From positions 35,801 to 99,800 of the forward strand of contig NZ_CP159837.1 of NCBI RefSeq assembly GCF_040564635.1: 64,000 nucleotides of DNA, in the 5' to 3' direction. Source of the DNA: Planktothricoides raciborskii GIHE-MW2. Its GTDB lineage: Bacteria; Cyanobacteriota; Cyanobacteriia; Cyanobacteriales; Laspinemataceae. Shown here one piece after another: positions 11,901 to 55,472 of this stretch. The notes under the pieces were generated by a model. That model was not told the origin of the DNA and made no database searches. It saw only the letters and a program-made list of their open reading frames with translations. How positions within the stretch are numbered: the stretch's first letter is position 1; each line of letters starts with the position of its first letter. Position numbers and translations under genes: made by a program.

Positions 11901-11982
11901 AGGAATTATCAGTCATCATCATATCGGCATCTATGATTATCAATGATAATCGATCGATTCGATCCGGCAATTCATATTTCAC

Positions 11983-38699: not shown

Positions 38700-38768
38700 G
38701 TGCTGAATATTTGCTGAATATTTGCTGAATATTTGCTGAATATTTGCTGAATATTTGCTGAATATTTT
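38700..38768. repeat. 11-bp tandem repeat TGCTGAATATT, 6 copies, at the serpin 5' end.
   Basis: Direct reading. Confidence 0.85.
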
Positions 38769-40442: not shown

Positions 40443-40514
40443 GGCTCAGTAGCTCAGTGGTAGAGCAGGGGACTCATAAGCCCTTGGTCGCGTGTTCAAA
40501 TCACGCCTGAGCCA
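40443..40514 (+). tRNA. tRNA-Met (anticodon CAU; could alternatively be lysidine-modified tRNA-Ile2).
   Basis: Cloverleaf read by hand. The acceptor GGCTCAG/CTGAGCC pairs with a G1-C72 pair, so it is not an initiator. D-arm is GCTC/GAGC. Anticodon loop CTCATAA has CAT at 40475-40477. T-arm is GCGTG/CACGC with TTCAAAT. The discriminator is A and CCA is not encoded. Confidence 0.85.
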
Positions 40515-40627
40515 TTATGAAACCAGGGGATTTGGGCGATTCCCTGGTTTATTATTTGAATCGCAAATGAGTACAAACAGATACAAATAAGTACAAATTT
40601 AGGCAATCATTTAGGTAACGTAAATTT

Positions 40628-41731
40628 TTGCGGCCAATGGCTAAATTAACCATCGAATCAATCAACGCCCAGCTTAAGGCAGCCAACATTAGAGTCAAGA
40701 TTAATACGCTGCCCGGTAAAAATACTTTGTTCCTTCGCGCTACTCTACCGCCCAAGCCTGGGTGTAATCGAGATAGTCCCTATCAGCAGCGCATAGCTCT
40801 AGGGGTGTACAACAATGACGTGGGACTGCGCTATGCCAAAGGAGAAGCAATCAAATTGGCAGGGCTTCTGGATACTTATCAATTTAGTTGGGAAACCTAT
40901 AAGCCGGAACTGTCTAAGCAGCCAAGTCAAAAGACTTGCAAAGACTGGATTCAAGAATTTGAGGACGATTTCTGGGCAAGAGGCGATCGCACTGCTACAA
41001 CCTGGAAAGATTACCGTAAAGTTTTCAAAAAACTTCCTGGCGATAAACCTCTAACTTTTGAATTGGGGAAAGAAATTATTTTGGCTACCGAGGCCAACAC
41101 TAAAAACAGAGAACGAACGACTGACAAGATTGCCAGCTTGTGTGAATTTGCCAAAATTGAGAATGCTAAGGATTTGAGGAAATATCGAGGCATCTATTCT
41201 CAGAAGGGGAAAGACACACCGTTGATTATTCCTTCTGATGAAGAAATTTTTAATTGTTTGTCTGGTTTCCATACCGAACAGTGGCGAAATGCTTTTTGTT
41301 TACAGGCCGCGTTTGGATTACGAAACCATGAAATCTATCATGTCAGGCTCGAAAAGATTGATAAGGGACTGTTAGAGGTGGGCGATCGCACTAAAACCGG
41401 CTACCGCGTTGTGCCCACCTGTCATCCAGACTGGATAGATATGTGGAATATTAAAGAAATTCTGCCGCAAGACCTACCCCAAAGCACTGCCACTGAAAAT
41501 GAGGAGTTAGGGCGATTAGTCTGGAAAGCCTATGACCGAGCCGGTGTTCCATTTCCCCCATATTCGTTAAGACATCGTTTTGCTTGCGATTGCGCTTGCC
41601 AAGGTAAACCACTTGCTCTTGCTGCTAAGGTCATGGGTCATAGTGTAGACGTTCATACAAAAATTTATCACGCATTTTTAGGGGAGAAAGACCTCTTAAA
41701 TGCGTGGTATAGGAAAGATGTTAATTTTTAG
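40628..41731 (+). CDS. int: Tyrosine-type site-specific integrase.
   Basis: 367 aa. The C-terminal catalytic region reads YSLRHRFACDCACQG...MGHSVDVHTKIYH (R...HxxR...Y). Confidence 0.85.
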   Translation: MRPMAKLTIESINAQLKAANIRVKINTLPGKNTLFLRATLPPKPGCNRDSPYQQRIALGVYNNDVGLRYAKGEAIKLAGLLDTYQFSWETYKPELSKQPSQKTCKDWIQEFEDDFWARGDRTATTWKDYRKVFKKLPGDKPLTFELGKEIILATEANTKNRERTTDKIASLCEFAKIENAKDLRKYRGIYSQKGKDTPLIIPSDEEIFNCLSGFHTEQWRNAFCLQAAFGLRNHEIYHVRLEKIDKGLLEVGDRTKTGYRVVPTCHPDWIDMWNIKEILPQDLPQSTATENEELGRLVWKAYDRAGVPFPPYSLRHRFACDCACQGKPLALAAKVMGHSVDVHTKIYHAFLGEKDLLNAWYRKDVNF

Positions 41732-41912
41732 GTTTTCGTTTAGCTATTGGGGTATTTAAATATGCCTCAATAGCTTCCAGCTTGAATTCTAACCAGCCTC
41801 CAGGAGTAACGCGATAGTGGATTCCCTCAATCCATTTTTTGCACCGCCATCTGTGGATTGTTCGAGGATGTTTCTTCAAATGATTGGCTAGTTCTTTTGT
41901 GGTCAAATACAT
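41721..41912 (-). CDS. AlpA/excisionase-like HTH DNA-binding protein.
   Basis: 63 aa. LTTKELANHLKKHPRTIHRWRCKKWIEGIHYRV is a MerR-like excisionase HTH. Confidence 0.6.
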   Translation of the reverse strand: MYLTTKELANHLKKHPRTIHRWRCKKWIEGIHYRVTPGGWLEFKLEAIEAYLNTPIAKRKPKN

Positions 41913-42051
41913 AATTCACCTTTTTATTTATTGGAAGGGTTTGGGAAACTATTTGCTCTTGTTTTAGTTGAAATCCACGAAGTCTTATCTGGAGACACTT
42001 TCAAGCATTATCGGGATTCCGATAACGGGATTAGTTTCCCGAAAAAACAAT

Positions 42052-42435
42052 CTATTCCAGAGCCCACTCCTGTGGTTGAAATTTGGCACCCGTGCGAAGC
42101 CAATACGTTAAGAAGTCGATGAAATCCTGAAGTTGGCCGATATTCATCTGACTCCGAACTTTTACCCCATAGCGAGCCTGAAACAGATTTCGGAAGCGAT
42201 CGCGATACTCATCTTTGGTCATAAATGGATAGCAAAGTCGCTGCAATTCTTTAACCAAGTCACTGCTTTTTTGTACAAGGGTTTTTTTGGCTTCTTTTTC
42301 GGAATCGTCAGCAATGTCAGCAGTTGGCTGAATCTCTTGTGTAGTAAAGCTTCTAGCTGCTGATAATTTGTCAGCATTTTCGTCAGCGCTGACGAAAATG
42401 CTGACAGAAGCAGAACTGAAGGTTGCGCCCCTCAC
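42052..42435 (-). CDS. Hypothetical small protein. The true start is probably internal (~42222), and the 5' end overlaps the DUF3987 gene tail.
   Basis: ORF only. Confidence 0.25.
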   Translation of the reverse strand: MRGATFSSASVSIFVSADENADKLSAARSFTTQEIQPTADIADDSEKEAKKTLVQKSSDLVKELQRLCYPFMTKDEYRDRFRNLFQARYGVKVRSQMNIGQLQDFIDFLTYWLRTGAKFQPQEWALE

Positions 42436-44446
42436 CCTGTATTTCCCCCAACCCCATATCAGCCAGCGTCACGAAATGCTGGCGAACTTGGTCTGCACTC
42501 GGTCGTTGTTTTTTGGTAAAAGTTGGCTGGACATCCCGTGCTTTAATCCACTCTCCTTTTGACTCTGCTAAGTTCAGAATTTTCATCAAGTGCGGTGCCA
42601 ATGAATCGTCATCGAACTGGCCATAGAGGGATTTAATCTGCTGAATCGCAAAGTTGGCCAATTTGATAGCAGGCAACAACGAATCCATCCCAATTTCATG
42701 GCTGATGGGTTGAGTGCGATCGCCCATTGCCCACCGGATGACGTGCAGATTCAGCGCTATTTTTCCAATCCGACCAGCGGTTTTGCCATAGACAGCCCGC
42801 AAACTCTGGTTGGGTTCTTTAACTCGAAGTTGTTCCACCCGGTCATAAGCTTGCTTGAACCGAAGCTGGGCTGCGGAGTCAAACTGATATTCTATTGCTG
42901 GCAACGCACTGATAGAGCGATAAAGTCCTGCCAACATTTCAGTCAGGTTCAATCCGCCGCTGATAGGCAAAGTAGATGCCGTATTTGGTTGATGGACAAA
43001 AAAGAAGCGTGCCCATTTCCCGTTTCCGTCATCTTTACCACCTATCAATTTTTCCAAAATTTCTGGTTGAATCGCGCCTAAAATTCCCAGGCAAGTTTTG
43101 TCCGTATCGTCGCGCAGACCTTCCGCTCGAAGAGTTTTAGCTCCCGACCCGTCATAAAGTTCTAATAAGTCTTCTTCATCAGAGCCGCGTCCGCCACGGT
43201 AGGAATTGAGACTGCCAAATAACGCTTTCAATTCATCAGACAAATAGAGCATCCCATGCTGTTGGCGACCGGCTTGCCGTAAGAGCGCTTCACCAGTAGT
43301 TCGTTGCAACCAATGAACTCGTTTCTGTGGTTCTGGGGGCATTTCGGCGTATTTATCTTCTGACTGGATTCGCTTGCAAGCTTCTTTCCATGTCGCCATT
43401 TCTTGTTCGTAGCGATCGCATTCATCGCGATGTAATAGACCGAGTGGCTTGGTAGCGATCGCTTTAAGAATCGGAGATTTCTTCTGGGAGCTTTCAGCCA
43501 CCAAACCAATGAACAGATTAGGAGAAAGCCGATAGTCAGTGGCCGTAGCAGCCAACAATTCAGTATCAGTCCGATGCAGGCTTGACACCGTTCCCAACAA
43601 AGACACTAAGCAGACTTCAGGTTGCAAATTCATCCATTTGGCTAACTGAGTTAAAGGCCGCGCAAGATTTTCGGGCAAAACTTCACTCAAGTTAATTGAC
43701 GACTGATTAGCTTGGAGAATCTGTTCAATTTTCGCTTTTGTAGTCTGTTGACTATCGCGTTCGTCTAACTCAGCAACGATGTCTGCATAAATACTGTTGA
43801 GTTGACTGACAGGCCATCGCGATTCTTGTGCTAATTGAGAAATGGTCAGCTTGCGATCACTCTCTGAAAAATTCTGGTGAGCAATTTTTTCTAACTCTTC
43901 GCGGATTACCGATGCAGTCCATTTCTGACTTTCTGAGTTGGTTTTCCCTTCTGAACACAAGAATGCATCATAAGCCCGGTCAAATCCCTTGCCAAATATC
44001 TGATATGCTTTTTCGATTTCCGCTCGGAGTTGGGTTTTCTCAAGTAAATCTGCTTCATGGTGATAGAGCAGTAACTCCAGTCGGAGCTTGTGAGTTTCGG
44101 TCATGCCGGGAACATTCAGAGCGCTTAGTCGGCCTTTCCAGCGGAGTTCACGAATAGCCATTACCAAAATTTCAGTAGCGAGCGGAAATTCTCGGTTAAG
44201 TTCTATAGAGCCTAAGTATTGCCCAACCACCTGAACATACATCTGGATTTCGGCTTCAAACTGCTCCTTAGACCGTTGGGCTTCGCAAGCTTCAGATATT
44301 TGACGGGCTAGTAAATTACTTTCAATATTTTTTTGAGCCGTTGCACTATTTTGCTGAGTTTGTGCTATATTATTAGTAGTCATGTGTTCACTCCTGTAAG
44401 TGGATACTCCCCCTGGGTGCTCTAACACCGCGAGGGGGTTTTTCAT
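42383..44446 (-). CDS. DUF3987-domain protein (P4/CP4-57-type, primase/helicase-associated protein of integrative elements).
   Basis: 687 aa. LYLSDELKALFGSLNSYRGGRGSDEEDLLELYDGSGAKTLRAEG resembles the conserved DUF3987 core. Its position next to int and the alpA-like gene fits P4-like islands. Confidence 0.65.
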   Translation of the reverse strand: MKNPLAVLEHPGGVSTYRSEHMTTNNIAQTQQNSATAQKNIESNLLARQISEACEAQRSKEQFEAEIQMYVQVVGQYLGSIELNREFPLATEILVMAIRELRWKGRLSALNVPGMTETHKLRLELLLYHHEADLLEKTQLRAEIEKAYQIFGKGFDRAYDAFLCSEGKTNSESQKWTASVIREELEKIAHQNFSESDRKLTISQLAQESRWPVSQLNSIYADIVAELDERDSQQTTKAKIEQILQANQSSINLSEVLPENLARPLTQLAKWMNLQPEVCLVSLLGTVSSLHRTDTELLAATATDYRLSPNLFIGLVAESSQKKSPILKAIATKPLGLLHRDECDRYEQEMATWKEACKRIQSEDKYAEMPPEPQKRVHWLQRTTGEALLRQAGRQQHGMLYLSDELKALFGSLNSYRGGRGSDEEDLLELYDGSGAKTLRAEGLRDDTDKTCLGILGAIQPEILEKLIGGKDDGNGKWARFFFVHQPNTASTLPISGGLNLTEMLAGLYRSISALPAIEYQFDSAAQLRFKQAYDRVEQLRVKEPNQSLRAVYGKTAGRIGKIALNLHVIRWAMGDRTQPISHEIGMDSLLPAIKLANFAIQQIKSLYGQFDDDSLAPHLMKILNLAESKGEWIKARDVQPTFTKKQRPSADQVRQHFVTLADMGLGEIQGEGRNLQFCFCQHFRQR

Positions 44447-44959
44447 TTATCCCAAATGCTGATGTAATTGAAATTTGGGTCAGCTTGCCTAATATTATCA
44501 CTAAAAATTAGCCAATAATCAACATTTTTTGTCCCAAATACTGAAACTATTGCTGTATTAGGGTTTCCAGGGTTTCCGTCATTTAAACATACGGTATTTT
44601 TCATCATTTTTTTAAGTTTCATTAAAACACGAATATCCAGTAATGAGTAATGAGTAAAACTGAAATTACTACTACAATAATAATTTTCTAAATTTTACTA
44701 CAGTAATAATTTTCTGAATTTAACTTCTGATTCCAGTAACCGTGATTCCGGGTAGTGACACAGTTTAATTTGTATAGGTAAAGTGACATAAGAATGACAT
44801 AAGAATGACATAACTAAGATTTCAGCGTTCGTACAATGATGGCTGGGTACAAGCAATAAGCAATGATTGTCTCGACTAGACGACGATGAAAAGGATATCA
44901 TTTTAAATGATACCCCTGGCGGAAAACAAGACTTTGTACCCATCAATCCCTAGCAATAA

Positions 44960-46333
44960 CTAACTCTCCTGAATTGACTTAAATTCTTCTACAGCTTTGT
45001 AATATTTTGGATTGCCGCCTTTACTGATGCCCCAAAGTAAGGCAATAATTTGAGCCTGATTTTGCCTCTCATTTTTGAGATTCTGAATCATCGGTGCAAG
45101 TTGGTGCAGAGGTAGCAATGCTGCCGGAAAACCTTCTTTTGCGACTTCTGAGATGCCGGTGCGCCCCTTGGATTCAGATGGCTGTGATTCAGACACATCA
45201 ATGGGTGCGTCGTTTGCACCGGGCGGTGCATCGGGTGATGAATCTTGCACTGGGTCAGATGTGCGGTCGTTCGGCTCATATCCCGGCAACTGATAGATAT
45301 CTTCTAAGTATTTGGCAATGGCAGAATGATTATCTTTGGTGGAGTTACTAACAGCTTCTAAACTTTTCATTGGGGACAAAGGTACTGGGAGAAATGCTGG
45401 CATCTTGTCCACCAGAATAGGATAGTCTTGAGATGTTACCCAAATCTTTAAATTTTCATCTTTGAGGCCACTGGCATAAGATGCAGCAAATTCACCAAGA
45501 CGAGCCCATCTAAGCGATTTTCTCGCGGCACCTTGACCCTCCCATTTAAAATCTTTTAATAGGTCAGACTGAACAATTAAGATTAGCCTCAAGCCAACTT
45601 TTCTGGCTTCACGAATTAGACTCAAGACCTCACTACCAGAACATTTTGGATGCACACCAGCAAACGTGGTGTACTCGTCCAAAATAAATGTGTAGCGATC
45701 GCCCACCGGCGCACCCTTTTTTAATAGCTTGTAACGTCTGTCCATCTCTTGATGAATAGTTGCGATCGCCTCGGTATAACTGCAATCTTCTTTGCCACTT
45801 ACCAAATTATCAAAAGGAATTGGTGCCGCTGGATATTCTCCATAATTTCTGCCTTTAGCCACAGTGGGCAGACCTGGATAATTCCCAGGCTTCCAGTGCG
45901 GGTCAATTGCTATTGACTTCTCATCCAGGAATTGCAGCAATGATTCAGTAAGAGTTGTCTTTCCATCGCCAGTGCCACCAACAATAGCGAGGTGAGCGTA
46001 TTTGTCTGGGTTGGTTTGAATCAAGTCCCAATTAAACACAATAGGCTCTTGTGCCGGTGGCAATGCCTGAACTTCCACAGCCGCTTCATAAGCTTGGTGG
46101 CACCGACGGTCTAACAGTTGCTCAAACAAGTCTAGCCGCGCCGCCTGAATCATTCGCAGCATCTGGTCGGGTTCTTCTGATTTTTTCTCAGCCCACGCCG
46201 ATATCAGTGCCAGTGCCGTGCCCCCAAATAGGGATGCAAATTGAGCATCGTCTTTCCCCTGGAAGTTGAAGCCGATGGCGGCGGCTCCGAGAATGGTGGC
46301 GATCGCAAAAGTAGACCATTGCAGAACCTTCAT
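44960..46333 (-). CDS. Membrane-anchored P-loop ATPase, FtsK/TraD/TcpA-like putative DNA-transfer or coupling ATPase.
   Basis: 457 aa. N-terminal TM, Walker A IVGGTGDGKTT, Walker B TFILDEY. Confidence 0.6.
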   Translation of the reverse strand: MKVLQWSTFAIATILGAAAIGFNFQGKDDAQFASLFGGTALALISAWAEKKSEEPDQMLRMIQAARLDLFEQLLDRRCHQAYEAAVEVQALPPAQEPIVFNWDLIQTNPDKYAHLAIVGGTGDGKTTLTESLLQFLDEKSIAIDPHWKPGNYPGLPTVAKGRNYGEYPAAPIPFDNLVSGKEDCSYTEAIATIHQEMDRRYKLLKKGAPVGDRYTFILDEYTTFAGVHPKCSGSEVLSLIREARKVGLRLILIVQSDLLKDFKWEGQGAARKSLRWARLGEFAASYASGLKDENLKIWVTSQDYPILVDKMPAFLPVPLSPMKSLEAVSNSTKDNHSAIAKYLEDIYQLPGYEPNDRTSDPVQDSSPDAPPGANDAPIDVSESQPSESKGRTGISEVAKEGFPAALLPLHQLAPMIQNLKNERQNQAQIIALLWGISKGGNPKYYKAVEEFKSIQES

Positions 46334-46334
46334 C

Positions 46335-46544
46335 TCACACCCCCATCGCGATTGCGATCGCTAATCCAACAATGGCACCCAAACTTAAAGGATGCTGGTT
46401 AGAACGATGGCACCAAACAATAATCGCCACCGCCTCTATCACCAAAGCAGCCAGAACAGCAGGCTGAAACAATGGCAAAAGTTTGGCGATCGCAACCACC
46501 AAACTGTGAACAAAAATTACTGCTAAAATTAAGCTGAATTTCAT
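46335..46544 (-). CDS. Small membrane protein (69 aa), apparently in an operon with the ATPase.
   Basis: ORF abutting the ATPase start. Two predicted TM helices. Confidence 0.4.
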   Translation of the reverse strand: MKFSLILAVIFVHSLVVAIAKLLPLFQPAVLAALVIEAVAIIVWCHRSNQHPLSLGAIVGLAIAIAMGV

Positions 46545-46597
46545 ACTATCCTTCCTAAGCTAAAAACCCCTAAGATGCAATCCTAGGGGCTTCGTTT

Positions 46598-46993
46598 TTA
46601 ACTACCTTTAATCAATCGGCCCCGCATTGAGCGATATCCCTGTCGTCGTTGTTGTACCTGTTCTAGGACTTTGATACCCTCAGTGTTCGCCGCAAGCTTG
46701 GCGGATTCAATGTCACCTAAGCCTTGGTAAATCTCACCAGCTAACTTACCTCGGACTTGGGCTTCTTTGGCCATAGTTACCACCTCCTTATGTTCGGCCT
46801 GTACTTGTTCCAGTGGCGCTGAAAAGTAGCGCTCTGTTTGCGATTCAATCCAGTCGATGTTTCGCAATATTTTGTGTTGTCGGTAGGGTTTGAAAAGCCA
46901 GTCAAACATCGTTTTAATTCCCCAAATCAGGTTGCTTGTATCCGCATTCCTGGTTCTGCAAACTTGTAATCTACAGAATCTAAAAACTCGCAA
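46598..46993 (-). CDS. Hypothetical protein (start possibly at the internal Met near 46912).
   Basis: ORF only. Confidence 0.4.
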   Translation of the reverse strand: MRVFRFCRLQVCRTRNADTSNLIWGIKTMFDWLFKPYRQHKILRNIDWIESQTERYFSAPLEQVQAEHKEVVTMAKEAQVRGKLAGEIYQGLGDIESAKLAANTEGIKVLEQVQQRRQGYRSMRGRLIKGS

Positions 46994-47215
46994 ATATCAC
47001 GCCACGAACGCATTTGAGAGTAGGTGGGAAAAATCATTAGAAAATATCCTCAACTGTCAAGAGGGAGTCTCGAAGCCATAAGCGATGGTCTTGATATTCA
47101 ATCCAGTTAGGGTTATTTAACCGAAATTTAATCTCTAGGATTGGGGTACTGCACCAAAATTCAAAAACAATCCAAGGACAGTAGGGTTGCCAACTAAAGC
47201 CAATATTGCTGTTTT

Positions 47216-47476
47216 TCATAGTTCTAAGGGTGGTAAATCTGTGTCAATTAATAATGGTTTTGCCGGTTCTAGCGTAGGTGATAATGTTGGCTGTGTTGCT
47301 TGCTGCATAAGCAATCCGTGCTCTGCAATAGTTCCCACAGGGGTAGCCATAAAGGTTTCAAAAGCAGATAAGTAACGAGACAAAATCAAGTTCACCACTT
47401 CTGCTTTCGGTATGCCTAGCTTCTCAGCCAAAGCTTCTATTCTCTGGTCAAATTTAGCATTGGTACTTAACCGCAT
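47216..47476 (-). CDS. ParR-like ribbon-helix-helix partition adaptor.
   Basis: 86 aa. The N-terminal strand-helix reads MRLSTNAKFDQRIEALAEKLGIPKAEVVNLIL. It lies immediately downstream of the ParM-like gene and overlaps it by 10 nt. Confidence 0.5.
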   Translation of the reverse strand: MRLSTNAKFDQRIEALAEKLGIPKAEVVNLILSRYLSAFETFMATPVGTIAEHGLLMQQATQPTLSPTLEPAKPLLIDTDLPPLEL

Positions 47477-48417
47477 AGCAAGCCTTCGCAGTTAGCCATT
47501 TGGCCTGACTCAACCACTTTAATTCGGTCGGATTTCCAACTGTTTAGAAGGCAGGCAGAACCACCGATAATGGCGATTTCGCCAATAGTCGGCAAATAAT
47601 TTGTCCAGGCGGTTGAAAGTTGCTTTTTCAGTTGGGTAGAAAAATCGGGCAGACAATCATCAATTGCCCTGGAAATATTGCGAACAACTCCGTAACTTCC
47701 ATCCCCTGCGATCGCATCCAAAATTAGGTCTAACCGGGGGGACAATCCCTTAGCTTCTATTCCGATTAAGTCGCGGTGTTGGGCAACCATCTTGGCTAAT
47801 TCAATCGTGCCTAGCCCAGTAAACTGACTCTCCCAGATTGGTTGCCCGTTAGGAGTCAGAATGATGCCCGTGGCATTGCCACCGCCAATGTCCAAAACAC
47901 CATTATTACGAGCGTATTTGAAGACTCCAGAACTGAGTAAGTAAGGGAACGCTGCTGCCCCTTCGGACAGAACTTCCACAGAACCAATTCGATAGGTATT
48001 GTCATTGATAGTATGAACGCCTTTTAGGGCGGTGATTAACTGCTTTTTAGCCTCGCCAAAGACATCGGGCAAACATAGCCGTAAATTGGCAATATTGACG
48101 GTTCCTGTGAGGTTGAGTTGTGGCAAAACTCCCAGCACCATCAACGGCATAATTTCAGCTTTCTCGGAGTAAAAAGTCGCGGCACCCTCCCGATACTTGG
48201 CATCGTCTCCGATTAGCCAGCGTTCCCCAGTCAAATCTTTGCGATCGCCCGCTTGATATTCCACAGCTTCGGAATCTCGAAAGTTGGCTTTAGAGTAGTA
48301 AGCTGGTAACACTTTGCGGAAACCCGGTGCTGCAATTTTGATAAAACGGTTCCCGGCATCGATTGCCAGACGTGGCATTTGATGGCAGGAAATGGCAGAT
48401 ATTTTTGTTTGGTACAT
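47467..48417 (-). CDS. ParM/StbA-family actin-like plasmid segregation ATPase.
   Basis: 316 aa. Reads LAIDAGNRFIKIA, GVLDIGGGNATGI and IAIIGGSA, the actin-fold phosphate and adenosine motifs. Confidence 0.8.
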   Translation of the reverse strand: MYQTKISAISCHQMPRLAIDAGNRFIKIAAPGFRKVLPAYYSKANFRDSEAVEYQAGDRKDLTGERWLIGDDAKYREGAATFYSEKAEIMPLMVLGVLPQLNLTGTVNIANLRLCLPDVFGEAKKQLITALKGVHTINDNTYRIGSVEVLSEGAAAFPYLLSSGVFKYARNNGVLDIGGGNATGIILTPNGQPIWESQFTGLGTIELAKMVAQHRDLIGIEAKGLSPRLDLILDAIAGDGSYGVVRNISRAIDDCLPDFSTQLKKQLSTAWTNYLPTIGEIAIIGGSACLLNSWKSDRIKVVESGQMANCEGLLCG

Positions 48418-48492
48418 GGTAAAAATCTCAAAAAGTATGGTTACAACTGGTAATAAATGGCACTAAATGTCAGACGTGGCATTTATTGGCAT

Positions 48493-48756
48493 CTAACGGG
48501 AATCTTTGACACCTTCTTGGTAGCCCCGATATTCGAGTTGGGTTTGTTCCAGTTCGCGGCTGATTTGCAAGTATTGAGTCAAGCTAAAGGTGGCGATACA
48601 GGCAAGGGCGATCGCACACAAAACACCGATGATTCCTTCTGTATTTCCGCTCATGTTTTGGCTTCCTAAATTCACAAATGAAAATGTCCCCCATAACCCG
48701 AAAGCTATGGGGAATATGAGGTTTAGTCGTTGTTGTTGGTAATCAACGCCTGCCAA
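48493..48756 (-). CDS. Small membrane protein (87 aa), third gene of a three-gene operon.
   Basis: ORF with two hydrophobic helices. Overlaps the upstream ORF. Confidence 0.4.
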   Translation of the reverse strand: MAGVDYQQQRLNLIFPIAFGLWGTFSFVNLGSQNMSGNTEGIIGVLCAIALACIATFSLTQYLQISRELEQTQLEYRGYQEGVKDSR

Positions 48757-48935
48757 ACTTCATGGATATCCGCTTTGTCGTAAGGCGTCCGCTGATACTC
48801 TGGGAAAAATTCCTCAATGGTGATTGCCTCAGCCGCGTTGCGGGCGGCGCTTGGATTTGCCCCCGCTTTTATGAATTCTTGGTAGCGGGCTTGGGCAATC
48901 AAGCGTTGTTCCTGGGTGAGCTTGTAACCAAACAT
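48723..48935 (-). CDS. Hypothetical protein (70 aa).
   Basis: ORF. A 1-nt stop/start overlap with the upstream gene suggests coupling. Confidence 0.4.
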   Translation of the reverse strand: MFGYKLTQEQRLIAQARYQEFIKAGANPSAARNAAEAITIEEFFPEYQRTPYDKADIHEVWQALITNNND

Positions 48936-49207
48936 TACGCCACCTCCATTTCTGCAAAGGTGGACGCCATAGCTTCAACTAAATCTGAGTCAGCATCTGG
49001 GTTGTTCTTCTCCCAGTTCTGTACTCGGATGTTTGCGTTGTGCAGGATTTGGGCAGCTTGAAATAGACGATCGCAACAAGAGTGCAATTCTTCTGGAAGT
49101 GCTTCGAGCGCTTGTTGAATGGCAGATTCAGCATCCGCCAGTCCGCAGATAAACTCACGGCGGTCAGCCGAGTCGTCAAACCCGGACAAAATTTCTGATA
49201 TATTCAT
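48935..49207 (-). CDS. Hypothetical acidic protein (90 aa).
   Basis: ORF. First gene of the three-gene operon. Confidence 0.45.
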   Translation of the reverse strand: MNISEILSGFDDSADRREFICGLADAESAIQQALEALPEELHSCCDRLFQAAQILHNANIRVQNWEKNNPDADSDLVEAMASTFAEMEVA

Positions 49208-49476
49208 GGAGAATCTCCAATTTGGAAGGTTCAGAGATGCCCGTGTCAGTGTGTGTCGCCAAACTCAGCACTGATGCGGGTCTTAAAGTTTTTATGGCTT
49301 ACATCAACGCGACCATCAGGGTCAGCCTCTACCCATTCGCGGGTGGGCTTGTTTTTGCTTGCCTGGGTTTATTATAACATCAATAGTTGTATTAGTCAAT
49401 TTTTAGTTTGTATTTATCCATACATTGTGTTATCTAATTAGGCTATTATATATGTGACGTTTTAAGAGTTACACTG

Positions 49477-49752
49477 ATGATGTACATTAATAAACTGCCA
49501 AGTGTGATTGACTGGAGACTAAATGAACTGATGGCAAAATATGACATCAAAGGGGTCGATTTAGCCGCCAAGCTTCAAATTTCTACTAATGCTGTATCTA
49601 GAATGCGGAGAGCAAAAGATATGCCTGGGTTCTCAGGGAAAAGACTAGGGCAACTCTGTGATGCTCTAAATGATTTGATAAAAGAGTCTGGTCAAAATGC
49701 CATCATTACCCCGGCTGAACTGCTTAATTACACTTACAGCGATGCGGCGTAA
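49477..49752 (+). CDS. HTH (XRE/Cro-like) regulator of the element.
   Basis: 91 aa. DLAAKLQISTNAVSRMRR is a helix-turn-helix. Confidence 0.5.
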   Translation: MMYINKLPSVIDWRLNELMAKYDIKGVDLAAKLQISTNAVSRMRRAKDMPGFSGKRLGQLCDALNDLIKESGQNAIITPAELLNYTYSDAA

Positions 49753-49839
49753 CCCCCCCAAATTCAAGAGATGCGATCGCTTTCGCGGCGCGGATGCGCT
49801 ATCCCCCCTAAGTCAGGGGGTTTTTTGTTGAGGTATGTT

Positions 49840-50105
49840 AACAGTGATAACAGCGTTATGTTAACAGTGATAACAGCGTTATGTTAACAGTGATAACAGT
49901 CAGTAGCTACCGGGATTCCGGTACTAGATTTGGTTCAGGCAAAAATGGGAAATACAACAACAGATATACCAACACAACAATGTTAACAGCGTTACCAGGT
50001 ATGTTAACAGCGTTACCAGTTATGTCAACAGTGATAACAGCGTTATGTCAACAGTGATAACAGTGAAAACAGGTATGTTAGGATAACACTGTCAACACTG
50101 TCAAC
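49840..50105. repeat. Iteron array: about 8 direct copies of the ~22-bp unit ATGTTAACAGTGATAACAGCGTT and variants (ATGTCAACAGTGATAACAG, ACACTGTCAAC).
   Basis: Direct reading. Sits immediately upstream of the RHH-like gene. Confidence 0.85.
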
Positions 50106-50106
50106 A

Positions 50107-50373
50107 TTGTTAATGGCTAATCCTATTTTTGCTTGCCGGATTCCTGACGATGACTTGCAAGCTTTCCGCGAGATATGCAAACGGTACAACTTAGACCCGG
50201 GTGAAGTGGTCAAGCGGTTTATATCGGATTCTGTCCGTGAGGGGGTTTTACCAGACAGAATCCTAGATACATCAAGTGAATCTCTGACACTGCATGAGCG
50301 AGTAGCACGGCTTGAGGCGCGGATTGACGCCCTAGAAACTGAAAAAAAGCAATTCCCCCCGCTTGCGGCATAA
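50107..50373 (+). CDS. Ribbon-helix-helix-like small regulator (possible iteron-binding or copy-control protein).
   Basis: 88 aa. The N-terminus reads ACRIPDDDLQAFREICKRYNLDPGEVVKRFI, a beta-strand plus two helices. The C-terminus is coiled-coil. The opposite-strand ORF 50043-50525 is judged an artefact. Confidence 0.45.
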   Translation: MLMANPIFACRIPDDDLQAFREICKRYNLDPGEVVKRFISDSVREGVLPDRILDTSSESLTLHERVARLEARIDALETEKKQFPPLAA

Positions 50374-51089
50374 GCCCCCCGGCTTGTCTCTCTGACCAAG
50401 ATTTTCGCATCCGTTACCCCGGCTATCCGCCAAAAGGGTGGGGCGATCGCATGAATCCCTTGACCACCCCCGACGGTTGCCAGTGGGAATCTCGTACCCA
50501 AGGCCGGATAAGAGAGTGGCATCAACTATAAAATCTTTGCCCCCTACTTTGGGGGTTTTTTGTTGGGAGCCGAGGCCGGTGGCTTGATATAGCTGTGTTA
50601 CGGTAACTTCCACCAAACGGTGGTAGTGAGGTAGTTCCATTATTGGAATTCCAATAATGCCTGAAAGTGGACAACTTCAAATTCCCTGAGACGGCGGCGT
50701 TTCGGGTGCGAAATACGTTTCAGGATTATCTGAAATAAAGTTCACACTGGATTAATACGGGGATTCCCGTATTGAGGGTGTGCTTAGTCAGCACACCCCT
50801 GGTGGAACTCCGAAGTGAGAATCTACATTAAATCCATTGCCGGGATTTGTAAACGATTTGCTGACGATTTGCTGACGATTTGCTGACGATTATTGTCAGC
50901 AGCTAAAAAGCTTACTACGCAAGGAATCTAGAGAATTACTAGGGTGTTGCTGACATTGCTGACGATTTTCACTGTTTTGTCCGCCGAAAGCACGGTTGGA
51001 TAAATCAGATAGGCAACATTTAGGCTCCGCTTAACTTTAAGCTTTAAAACCCTTATATATCAAGAGTTTAGCAACGTCCCAAGCTTCTT

Positions 51090-51128
51090 ATAAGCCCTTG
51101 GTCGCGTGTTCAAATCACGCCTGAGCCA
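51090..51128 (+). other. attR: 39-bp exact duplicate of the 3' half of tRNA-Met (positions 40476-40514).
   Basis: ATAAGCCCTTGGTCGCGTGTTCAAATCACGCCTGAGCCA is identical at both sites. Confidence 0.9.
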
Positions 51129-51134
51129 TATACA

Positions 51135-51168
51135 CCGCAAGGGTTTCAGCCCTTGCGGTATTTTTTTG
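51135..51168 (+). terminator. Rho-independent terminator (probably the original tRNA terminator).
   Basis: ACCGCAAGGG-loop-CCCTTGCGGT followed by ATTTTTTTG. Confidence 0.65.
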
Positions 51169-51331
51169 TCCCGCACCATGCTACGATTTTGTTACGGTTT
51201 TTATACTTTTAAAAAGTGAAACTCCCTATCTGCAAGGCTTAGGGAGATTTTGTTACGATTTTGCTACAATTTTGCTATATTTTGGCTCTAAACGCAGCAA
51301 GCACATCGTCGAATGGCAATAGACTGGCGGC

Positions 51332-53299: not shown

Positions 53300-53640
53300 A
53301 TGGATATAAATAATATAAATAATATAAATATACATATAAATATACCCGTCCTGGCGAAGCATTCGCGGATATACCTCTACGACAAATACAACGGTTTTAT
53401 GCTGTATATAAATATACCCGTCCTGGCGAAGCATTCGCGGATATACCTCTACGACAAATACAATCGTTTTCGTTCCGGTAAGCTTTCGCCATGCCAAAGG
53501 CTATATGCTTTGCCTCTACATATACGCAAATACAACGGTTTTATGCTGTATATAAATATAGTCCGAAGGGCGAAGCATTCGCGGATATATTTCTACGAAA
53601 AATACAATGGTTTTCGGCGCGAATGCTTTGCCCCTACTAC
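53300..53640. repeat. Tandem ~70-bp repeats (3-4 copies), each containing the palindrome GGCGAAGCATTCGCGG and ACAAATACAACGGTTTTATGCTGTATATAAATAT.
   Basis: Direct reading. Track ORFs 53288-53665 and 53297-53497 are artefacts. Confidence 0.85.
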
Positions 53641-55265: not shown

Positions 55266-55350
55266 TAAATCAGAAACCAGAAATTCAGAAACCGGGTTTC
55301 TTTAATAAACCTTGGCTAACCAGCAAAAATTATCGCAAAAACCCGGTTTA
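55266..55350. repeat. MITE-like unit: GAAACCGGGTTTC ... AAAACCCGGTTT flanking ~40 bp, homologous to the units at 1800-1945.
   Basis: cagaaaccgggtttctttaataaaccttggctaaccagcaaaaattatcgcaaaaacccggttt. Confidence 0.8.
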
Positions 55351-55472
55351 TTCCTAAACTCCTTTGTGTCCTCTGTGTCTTTGTGGTGAATTATTCATTA
55401 ATGCCAATGGGCAAATTTATCCAGATGATGTAAGAATCTTTATATTTTAGTCGCAGGGAATCTGCCTTAATT

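Follow-up and report, generated by a model that had tools for sequence, protein, structure and literature searches.

In the chromosome of the bloom-forming filamentous cyanobacterium Planktothricoides raciborskii GIHE-MW2, a gene for tRNA-Met(CAU) is followed by a 10,614-bp element that ends with a second copy of the 3′ part of the tRNA, which raises the question of what kind of element occupies this site and how it could move. The element lies within a 64,000-nucleotide stretch of DNA (NZ_CP159837.1, positions 35,801 to 99,800 of the forward strand) that was analysed as a whole and is called the window here; all coordinates are window positions. The original prediction, made from the letters of the window alone, described a P4-like element or a low-copy plasmid able to integrate. 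The open reading frames (ORFs) listed in it all exist, and most of their annotations hold. In our analysis, the element is probably an integrative plasmid: it inserted precisely into the tRNA gene, and its modules have homologues on free plasmids of cyanobacteria. The P4-like label was not sustained, as no P4-type primase, no psu, sid or delta genes and no P4-type integrase were found.

The gene at 40443–40514 (+) is an intact tRNA-Met with the anticodon CAT, the sole tRNA gene of the window according to ARAGORN and the only Rfam match within the element region (tRNA, 68.9 bits). A block of 40 bp that runs from inside its anticodon loop to one base beyond its 3′ end (attL, 40476–40515, +) recurs exactly at 51090–51129 (attR, +), where it represents the displaced original 3′ part of the tRNA. 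This exact repeat had been given as 39 bp; it is real and one base longer, and in an extended form 42 of 43 bases are identical (40473–40515 vs. 51087–51129). Our own estimate of the chance expectation for a 40-bp exact repeat in 64 kb is about 1e-15. Contigs collected via the GTPase gene downstream of the element and aligned to the window contain the empty site that had been proposed as a check, in one contig of Planktothricoides sp. SR001 (LIUQ01000026.1; L017) and three metagenome contigs (L016, L018, L019; L and P numbers are our labels for contigs or loci and for proteins). Their flanks are 99.6–99.9% identical to the window, and in the alignment base 40515 is joined to base 51130 with a single 40-bp copy, i.e., the junction falls exactly at the repeat. 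Because near-identical genomes join these two bases with one repeat copy, the 10,614 bp are a precise and recent site-specific insertion and not an ancient fixed region. A relative at around 85% identity (L103) likewise has an empty attB, and in ENA sample ERZ28593885 both junctions are occupied, with attL on L003 and attR on L106. Three marks of a tRNA-targeting island, namely tRNA-derived end repeats, an integrase gene just inside one end and an empty site, are present.

The tRNA remains uninterrupted. The element came with a copy of the tRNA 3′ part and with a terminator of its own, a hairpin with a 13-pair stem followed by a T-rich tract (40520–40550, +; terminator scan), which replaces the native one and is missing from the empty sites. 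The native terminator (51134–51159, +), an 11-pair stem followed by a T run in the same scan, lies directly 3′ of the tRNA in the empty sites and is separated from it by the element in GIHE-MW2. Genes for Uma2 and NACHT proteins flank the element, and the accession order in SR001 suggests that the two adjoin there. The tRNA itself is, judging from its sequence, not an initiator tRNA because base 1 and base 72 form a G-C pair; with its CAU anticodon it is either an elongator tRNA-Met or a lysidine-modified tRNA-Ile2. The pair adjoining its anticodon loop is an A/G mismatch in occupied and empty sites alike. To the right of attR, the host flank (51179–51285) holds 2.9 copies of an 11-bp repeat with the unit GATTTTGCTAC that are also found in the empty sites and resemble the ACGATTTGCTG repeats of the element left of attR; they could be the trace of an older occupant or merely the usual repeats of this genome.

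Which enzyme could have made the insertion is suggested by the first gene of the element (40637–41731, +), encoding a 364-aa tyrosine integrase (Int) with matches to Pfam Phage_integrase (E 1.8e-5), the PHROG integrase profile (E 3e-16), archaeal XerA (E 8e-6) and a XerC-like protein in the PDB (E 3e-4). Precomputed Pfam matches (E at most 1e-5) place XisAC_N and XisAC_2nd domains in exactly this protein and in all 39 homologues, and the arrangement that defines the XisA/XisC family, these two domains followed by a tyrosine recombinase domain, is found in Int. The predicted distance of 114 bp between the tRNA and the integrase start applies to the TTG at 40628, whereas the 364-aa product in NCBI starts at the ATG at 40637, 122 nt from the tRNA end. 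Convergent with int and overlapping its end, a gene at 41721–41912 (−) encodes a 63-aa helix-turn-helix (HTH) protein, as the initial AlpA-like assignment implied; it matches Pfam HTH_17 above the cut-off (28.7 bits) and a PHROG excisionase/regulator profile (E 3.6e-5) and is a candidate excisionase or directionality factor. XisAC-type integrases also occur on 13–17-kb plasmids of Microcystis and Picosynechococcus. The integrases nearest to Int outside Planktothricoides (63–69% identity) are encoded on four phage-like contigs (L115–L118), which also carry DpdA, Dam and intein-containing Thy1 genes.

The replication gene gives the element the look of a plasmid. It encodes a 687-aa protein (Rep; 42383–44446, −) with a rare helical domain (aa ~40–165) followed by a DUF3987 helicase, the latter in agreement with the first annotation (Pfam E 5e-40; PHROG DNA helicase E 2e-19). 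No Toprim, D5_N, TIGR01613 or P4-primase match was obtained for Rep, and a PDB sequence search gave no match. Its 88 homologues are cyanobacterial, many of them carrying Prim-Pol plus PriCT_2, DnaB_N or zf-CHC2 at the N-terminus, none of which is present in Rep itself, and several are encoded on plasmids; by tblastn, Rep homologues are found on 40 cyanobacterial plasmids, including ones of 7.0 and 7.6 kb. For a PriCT-DUF3987 protein of a tRNA-integrated element, 5′-3′ helicase activity and cooperation with PrimPol have been established biochemically (PMC11724360). The helical domain (window 43950–44330) is elsewhere fused to D5_N/DUF5906 or AAA_25 helicases, i.e., it occurs with three unrelated helicase classes, and an exhaustive HMMER search of 1.8 billion representative proteins returned only about six clear relatives. 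One protein sharing it is P0075, a 745-aa AAA_25 protein of P. raciborskii (61% identity in this domain). Because the domain is modelled as all-helical and comprises only ~110 aa, a role as primase is unlikely; it may instead recruit the host primase or recognise the origin. Two further genes accompany rep: orf59 (44443–44622, −), the first gene of the rep operon, is called in all related contigs, and orf127 (42052–42435, −), a gene called in metagenome contigs, is homologous to the C-terminal domain of the full-length Rep of relatives, its C-terminal ~60 residues aligning with the C-terminal domains of the Rep proteins P0280, P0075, P0283 and P0003. At the junction of Rep and orf127, where many assemblies break, sits a perfect 38-bp palindrome (42369–42406) that belongs to a cluster of TTGCTGAC-type words (42303–42406) found by repeat-pair and word searches. 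Upstream of orf59, an AT-rich non-coding region (44623–44959) with three small tandem repeat arrays (TRF, at 44639, 44670 and 44784) is a candidate promoter, origin or transfer locus.

Partition genes are present as well. The gene at 47467–48417 (−) encodes a ParM/StbA actin-like partition ATPase, named ParM/StbA by NCBI, which matches the PHROG partition protein profile over its full length (E 2e-16) and Pfam ALP_N just under the cut-off (E 5.7e-5); a PDB sequence search with it gave no match. ParM homologues are carried by 20 cyanobacterial plasmids. Of the ParM/ParR pair that had been proposed, ParM is well supported, and the candidate for the second partner is an 86-aa ORF (47216–47476, −) overlapping the parM stop codon, with a ribbon-helix-helix (RHH)-like N-terminus, an acidic tail and the UniRef label CopG RHH; the same synteny is found on the plasmid pMIC7113.06. 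The actin-like ParM of a type II ParMRC system is in place, and repeat scans found no parC-type repeats either immediately 5′ of parM or around the promoter of the operon. Three small ORFs (48493–49207, −; 87/53, 70 and 90 aa), whose order is conserved in L026, L104 and L111 and which have no family match, had been taken for an operon of their own. The ORFs exist, and with them begins a long operon that extends leftward across parMR as far as the ATPase gene. Between parMR and the ATPase gene lie orf60 (47037–47219, −; conserved in L026, E 9e-31) and orf131 (46598–46993, −; called as 103 aa in relatives, conserved in L026 with E 1e-63, no family match). The best promoter-like site of the region (49371–49399, −), a consensus match of the form TTGACT-17-TATAAT with 11 of 12 matches and a TG extension, faces this operon.

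Two regulator genes occupy the right part of the element. An XRE/Cro-type HTH regulator (49477–49752, +), correctly recognised at the outset (HTH_26, E 1.5e-7), is divergent from the leftward operon and is followed by a terminator-like hairpin at 49804–49820; a similar hairpin at 50539–50556 follows the gene for an 86-aa RHH protein with a C-terminal coiled coil (50113–50373, +). The latter is a candidate iteron-binding autoregulator whose resemblance to RelB/DinJ RHH proteins stays below the cut-off (E 1.5e-5), so that the ORF of the predicted RHH regulator is there and its family assignment is provisional. Between the two genes, repeat and word searches delimit an iteron region (49834–50111, +) with 15 direct 8-bp cores of the form G[TA][TCA]A[AC]CAG, arranged as 9-bp-spaced pairs in seven 21–23-bp units. 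Cluster I (49837–49899) has six cores and is separated by a 90-bp spacer from cluster II (49982–50072) with nine, and two inverted GTTGACAG copies at 50085–50110 abut the RHH start codon. The count of about eight iterons upstream of the RHH gene given earlier was about right; the 23-mer on which it was based has two exact occurrences and one with a single mismatch, and none of 100 shuffles reached three matches. To the right of these genes, the non-coding right arm (50557–51089) is a candidate attP arm or origin with palindromes and five exact TTGCTGAC words at 50858–50963, among them an 11-bp unit present in 3.5 copies. Within the window, every exact TTGCTGAC copy (six in total) falls inside the element, in the clusters 42303–42406 and 50858–50963. 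The 11-bp arrays were considered as integrase arm sites and dropped from consideration, as such arrays are common genome-wide. One of them (50853–50891) shares the word TTGCTGA with an array outside the element (38701–38767). Palindromes of 16–19 bp around CGGGATTCCG occur in three non-coding parts (42008–42023, 49909–49924 and 50755–50773) and could be operators. An enrichment of these palindromes was rejected, since their count is not above chance and was reached by 18 of 100 shuffles.

How could an element of this size pass from cell to cell? A candidate motor is a 457-aa P-loop ATPase of the FtsK/HerA superfamily (44960–46333, −), assigned by a homologue profile searched against the PDB and by AlphaFold and Foldseek. 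A profile built from 43 homologues matches a HerA-type helicase and FtsK in the PDB, and in the AlphaFold model (predicted local distance difference test, pLDDT, 82.8) two hydrophobic helices at the N-terminus and a long helix precede a RecA-like core, which a disordered linker connects to a three-helix domain at the C-terminus. The top Foldseek match of this model is the FtsK motor on DNA (E 1e-5), overall the conjugation coupling protein TcpA ranks as the best structural match, and the modelled fold resembles TcpA, FtsK and HerA. Pfam FtsK_SpoIIIE is matched below the cut-off (E 0.005), although a few family members have precomputed PF01580 matches. The transmembrane (TM)-anchored FtsK/TraD-like ATPase of the original prediction accordingly stands as a P-loop ATPase of this superfamily, while its TM anchor is probable and borderline, with a Kyte-Doolittle hydropathy of 1.4–1.56, below the usual threshold of 1.6. 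Directly upstream, a gene at 46335–46544 (−) encodes a 69-aa small integral membrane protein (maximum hydropathy 2.61), and a small hydrophobic ORF holds the same position in 63 of 80 loci. This gene pair is conserved, and we found no description of it in the literature searched; nor did it yield an account of this ATPase-integrase family. An ‘ATPase found exclusively in elements’ was noted for nifD elements (PMC4874684) and may be a lead. By tblastn, the ATPase occurs on nine plasmids, all from filamentous cyanobacteria and all classified as non-mobilisable by MOB-suite.

Judging from the ATPase fold, the pairing of the two genes and where they occur, the ATPase may form, together with the membrane protein, a DNA translocase for cell-to-cell spread, a reading that, with all variants of transfer taken jointly, falls somewhat short of an even chance in our judgement. 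One variant, in which the pair would be a single-motor DNA transfer system like TraB/Spd of Streptomyces plasmids and of the integrative and conjugative elements of actinomycetes (AICEs), is tentative and on its own rather unlikely. In another variant the element would be an integrative and mobilisable element (IME), with the ATPase as a TcpA-like coupling protein that hands it to the type IV secretion system (T4SS) of the host or of a co-resident plasmid. The architecture, an NTPase domain preceded by two hydrophobic helices at the N-terminus, fits this idea, and NCBI names the homologue on a Pseudanabaena plasmid a ‘type IV secretory system conjugative DNA transfer family protein’. However, no relaxase, oriT or other T4SS component was recognised in the element or in the ATPase-bearing 5.6–6.4-kb plasmids, the ATPase matches models of type IV coupling proteins at the level of the P-loop only, and the uniformly non-mobilisable classification of the nine plasmids also speaks against it, so that we regard mobilisation by a foreign T4SS as improbable.

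Is this arrangement peculiar to GIHE-MW2? A pattern search of one genome per species for ATPase loci found 76, almost all in filamentous cyanobacteria. Neighbourhood clustering shows an XisAC-type integrase close to the ATPase gene in 63 of the 78 loci (median distance, 897 bp), whereas the Rep type varies, with DUF3854-VapE or PrimPol-D5 in 33 loci, AAA_25 in 12 and DUF3987 in three; Rep genes are, by this comparison of sequences, interchangeable across the family. A sister element (L026) with an 88% identical ATPase keeps the order XRE/three small ORFs-ParM-ParR-small ORFs-membrane protein-ATPase and has a Prim-Pol/D5_N/DUF5906 Rep in place of DUF3987. The closest genomic relative of the ATPase (L039, 47% identity) has a 29-bp tRNA-His repeat at its ends and a gene for a REP_ORF2-G2P/RepSA-like protein, and two further loci (L083 and L087) end in 43-bp and 59-bp repeats of tRNA-Thr and tRNA-Cys, respectively. 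In Microcoleus vaginatus WJT46-NPBG5, two ATPase loci with identical scores (L031 and L032) lie around 21 kb apart on one scaffold and may be a tandem or duplicated element.

Members of the family are also found as free circles. The 5.6-kb plasmid pCC7120zeta carries the ATPase together with a VapE-type Rep and an RHH gene. The 6.4-kb plasmid pNOS7524.02 of Nostoc PCC 7524, which we take to be pDU1, the replicon of Anabaena shuttle vectors, encodes RepA and a short integrase besides the ATPase, whose gene is preceded by three tiny ORFs. On the free 28.8-kb plasmid pMIC7113.06, the same ParM-ParR-small ORFs-ATPase operon is accompanied by integrases and a DUF3854 Rep. The expectation of a plasmid that can integrate is thus backed by the occurrence of homologues of its Rep, ParM and ATPase, and of a whole operon, on free plasmids.

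The same distribution bears on a further explanation, that of a phage satellite of the kind of P4, the phage-inducible chromosomal islands (PICI) or the PICMI elements, which would sit in the tRNA gene, be induced by a helper cyanophage, use its own helicase and be packaged in helper capsids. The small size of the element and its combination of integrase, small HTH protein and replicative helicase are indeed reminiscent of satellites, and DUF3987 proteins are mentioned in papers on PICMI satellites. In addition, the tail sheath, tail tube and Mu Gp36 genes beside the nearest non-Planktothricoides integrases, as well as distant ATPase homologues in tailed-phage contigs, could be taken as signs of such a lifestyle. 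However, free plasmids carry homologues of ParM/ParR, Rep and the ATPase, and one of them, pMIC7113.06, the same operon; PHROG and Pfam searches revealed no capsid, terminase-small, head-size-redirecting or helper-interference gene, all ORFs of unknown function are 131 aa or shorter, a collection of phage records contained no match to the ATPase, and the primase typical of P4 is missing. On balance, a satellite appears to be a poor candidate. A virus was rejected altogether, as no ORF is long enough for a capsid or spike protein and neither a structural PHROG match nor a match to phage records was obtained.

For an integrative plasmid, the following course of events can be proposed. Its first step, the insertion, is shown: an attP site that bore the tRNA-Met 3′ part was recombined with the chromosomal tRNA gene, by homology through the action of Int, and the crossover fell within the 40-bp block of identity. 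The tRNA now ends in element DNA and uses the terminator of the element; the displaced 3′ part and the native terminator remain at the opposite end. By homology, Int and the HTH_17 protein would carry out the reverse reaction and release a circle, which the DUF3987 helicase would replicate, with priming by the host assumed because no primase is recognised in the element. ParM filaments and the ParR-like adaptor would segregate the circle, the XRE protein would control the long operon, and the RHH protein would bind the iterons that cover its own promoter. Finally, the membrane protein and the FtsK/TcpA/HerA-like ATPase could act as a DNA translocase in the membrane and carry the element from cell to cell, which is the least certain step. 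No cargo was recognised in the element, PADLOC returning P-loop-level matches only, and for the same reason a defence island was rejected.

Several observations weigh against this picture. Among the metagenome contigs, neither an attP junction nor a circular contig turned up, whether with a degenerate attL/attR/attB/attP pattern, the single match of which is the empty attB of a distant relative, or in contigs with int or the RHH gene; where a contig encodes Int or the RHH protein in identical form, it has attL or attR or breaks off within the repeat. The circular form that the original prediction asked for was hence not seen in assemblies, while Logan unitigs break inside the 40-bp repeat and have no power to show or exclude attP. 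Rep is without a recognisable primase or origin-binding domain in Pfam and other hidden Markov model (HMM) libraries, the AlphaFold2 model of its N-terminal domain (pLDDT 78.8) matches no solved fold in the PDB, and to judge by the alignments it appears to be split into two overlapping ORFs, Rep and orf127. Neither the ParR-like protein, in the family libraries searched, nor the RHH protein, at above-threshold level, has an HMM family match. An iteron-controlled theta replicon has its iterons next to the rep gene, where Rep binds them; here iterons are present and abut the RHH gene, beyond the XRE gene, 1.4 kb from parM and 5.4 kb from rep, and they may serve as origin, centromere or operator. 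The 11-bp arrays may have no meaning because tandem arrays of 10–13-bp units are frequent in the non-coding DNA throughout this genome (e.g., at 11974, 12619, 13864, 15908, 26205, 38701, 39217 and 62366). The ATPase passes no curated family threshold in Pfam or other libraries, and its function may not be transfer, because distant homologues (26–36% identity) lie in tailed-phage contigs: of five IMG/VR contigs with such homologues, one encodes a large terminase of the gpA type, and a tail baseplate hub/M23 peptidase protein is encoded on another.

Some of these points would also suit a decaying island, i.e., a once-mobile plasmid that is now fixed and inert and whose ATPase would be used in maintenance or exclusion, e.g., in septum-linked segregation or in defence, and not in transfer. 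The missing circular form, the apparent separation of Rep from its C-terminal domain and the phage-borne ATPase homologues are in line with it. However, the element is exactly present or absent between genomes whose flanks are more than 99.6% identical, its 40-bp repeats are still identical, all its ORFs are intact, and PADLOC shows no defence-system match beyond the P-loop level. Furthermore, variants of the element at 97–100% identity are found in many samples and are mosaic, which indicates that co-circulating variants have met and recombined: in L002, compared with window 41315–48117, the part from int to orf59 is 100% identical, whereas the part from the ATPase to ParM differs by 1–3.5%, with indels in the ATPase linker. 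The changes in ParM variants are synonymous in excess. A differently equipped variant is probably present at the same site in P. raciborskii FACHB-1370, as judged from accession order only. The accessions of that strain run from Uma2 (MBD2544274) through Int (275), the HTH protein (276), ParR (281) and ParM (282) to NACHT (287), and FACHB-1370 is not represented in the 90% cluster of the ATPase. The contig with this variant and the one encoding P0075 are equally long. Decay of a formerly mobile plasmid consequently seems to us a rather remote explanation, and an integrative plasmid is the preferred one.

What does the element add to present knowledge? Integrative plasmids at tRNA genes are already a known kind, and the element as such is no surprise; the interesting parts are the pattern at the level of the family and the possible transfer motor. 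The occupied site of GIHE-MW2 and the empty site of SR001 provide a clean natural pair in a bloom-forming filamentous cyanobacterium, in which integration, excision and transfer can be tested. The element also links XisA/XisC recombinases, known mainly from heterocyst rearrangements, with ordinary tRNA-targeting plasmids and phages, which fits the old idea that the heterocyst elements descend from such mobile DNA. The function of the ATPase could explain the spread of small, supposedly non-mobilisable cyanobacterial plasmids, and the compact set of int, att, Rep and ParMR might be of use in integrating or stably segregating vectors for Oscillatoriales. If single-motor transfer proved true, the element would, along with pCC7120zeta, pNOS7524.02 and dozens of relatives that are integrated at tRNA genes of Nostoc, Calothrix, Fischerella and Microcoleus, be the cyanobacterial counterpart of AICEs, and double-stranded DNA would spread between the cells of a filament without a T4SS, a mode so far reported only in mycelial Actinobacteria.

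Two features of the window outside the element were also recorded. At 55320–55438, the window has 119 bp where SR001 (L017, 11530–13636) and several metagenome contigs hold a 2.1-kb gene pair for an Eco29kI-like restriction enzyme and a C5 DNA methylase, between genes for a DUF697 GTPase and RNase T. This pair is a second presence/absence difference between the strains, and its restriction gene is split in two in some contigs. A 72-bp repeat with 3.9 copies and 68% matches (53304–53614) lies between the NACHT and GTPase genes and is also present in strains with the empty site.

Among known systems, P4 is integrated at a tRNA gene with its integrase beside it, encodes a replicative helicase of its own as well as a small HTH regulator, and is also able to persist in plasmid form. 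The element shares the tRNA site, the adjacent integrase, the small HTH regulator and a helicase of its own, but it is without an alpha-type primase-helicase, no analogues of psu, sid, delta or cnr were found in it, and its integrase belongs to another subfamily. It is not an integrative and conjugative element of the type IV secretion kind because it has no relaxase and no VirB4; no element protein matched either family in Pfam, PHROG or other HMM libraries. TcpA, the FtsK-like coupling protein of the Clostridium perfringens plasmid pCW3, is 14% identical to the ATPase, whereas the other tcp genes (for VirB4-like TcpF and VirB6-like TcpH) and a relaxase are missing from the element. The plasmids pCC7120zeta, pNOS7524.02 and pMIC7113.06 share a homologous ATPase, but they are free circles with other Rep types and an ATPase of 28–30% identity.

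With XisA and XisC of the nifD and hupL elements, Int has the XisAC_N and XisAC_2nd domains in common. Those recombinases excise elements from within protein-coding genes during heterocyst differentiation, whereas Int targets a tRNA gene that is left uninterrupted. P. raciborskii, to our knowledge, forms no heterocysts. XisA is also longer, at 472 aa (bioRxiv 10.64898/2025.12.09.693284) compared with the 364 aa of Int. The view that such elements are poorly characterised in filamentous cyanobacteria needs to be qualified by a recent precedent, a 37-kb excision element at tRNA-Cys in Anabaena variabilis ATCC 29413 with a partial tRNA copy and a 368-aa tyrosine integrase, which is missing from near-identical strains and has a circular form at around 6%; its authors suggest that the integrated form is perhaps needed for its replication (bioRxiv 10.64898/2025.12.09.693284). 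That element is larger than the one in GIHE-MW2 and uses a different tRNA.

AICEs are described as 9–24-kb tRNA-integrated elements with modules for int/xis, rep, regulators and FtsK-like tra (PMC2440964). The element resembles them in its size, its integration at a tRNA 3′ end by a tyrosine integrase with a small Xis-type protein, and its regulator genes. Further likenesses are a replication module of its own that varies between relatives (RepSA/pSAM2-like in L039, Prim-Pol in L026), one membrane-linked FtsK-type ATPase beside genes for small membrane proteins with no T4SS genes, and hosts that form multicellular filaments. TraB, TcpA and FtsK constitute one branch of the ATPase tree, and reports of TraB homologues are limited to Actinobacteria (PMC3548315). 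In contrast to AICEs, the host of the element is a cyanobacterium and belongs to another phylum, its ATPase fails the Pfam FtsK_SpoIIIE cut-off and shares a RecA-like core only (~220 aa), and no actinobacterial plasmid was among the tblastn matches to the ATPase. Its Rep, a DUF3987 helicase with a helical domain, is not RepSA, RepAM or Prim-Pol; it carries ParMR, which is no AICE feature; and no clt locus was identified in it. Although the element is not a member of the AICEs, because its host is the wrong one, its Rep is of another type and its ATPase lies below the FtsK_SpoIIIE threshold, AICEs such as pSAM2 appear, by analogy, to be its closest counterparts in organisation.

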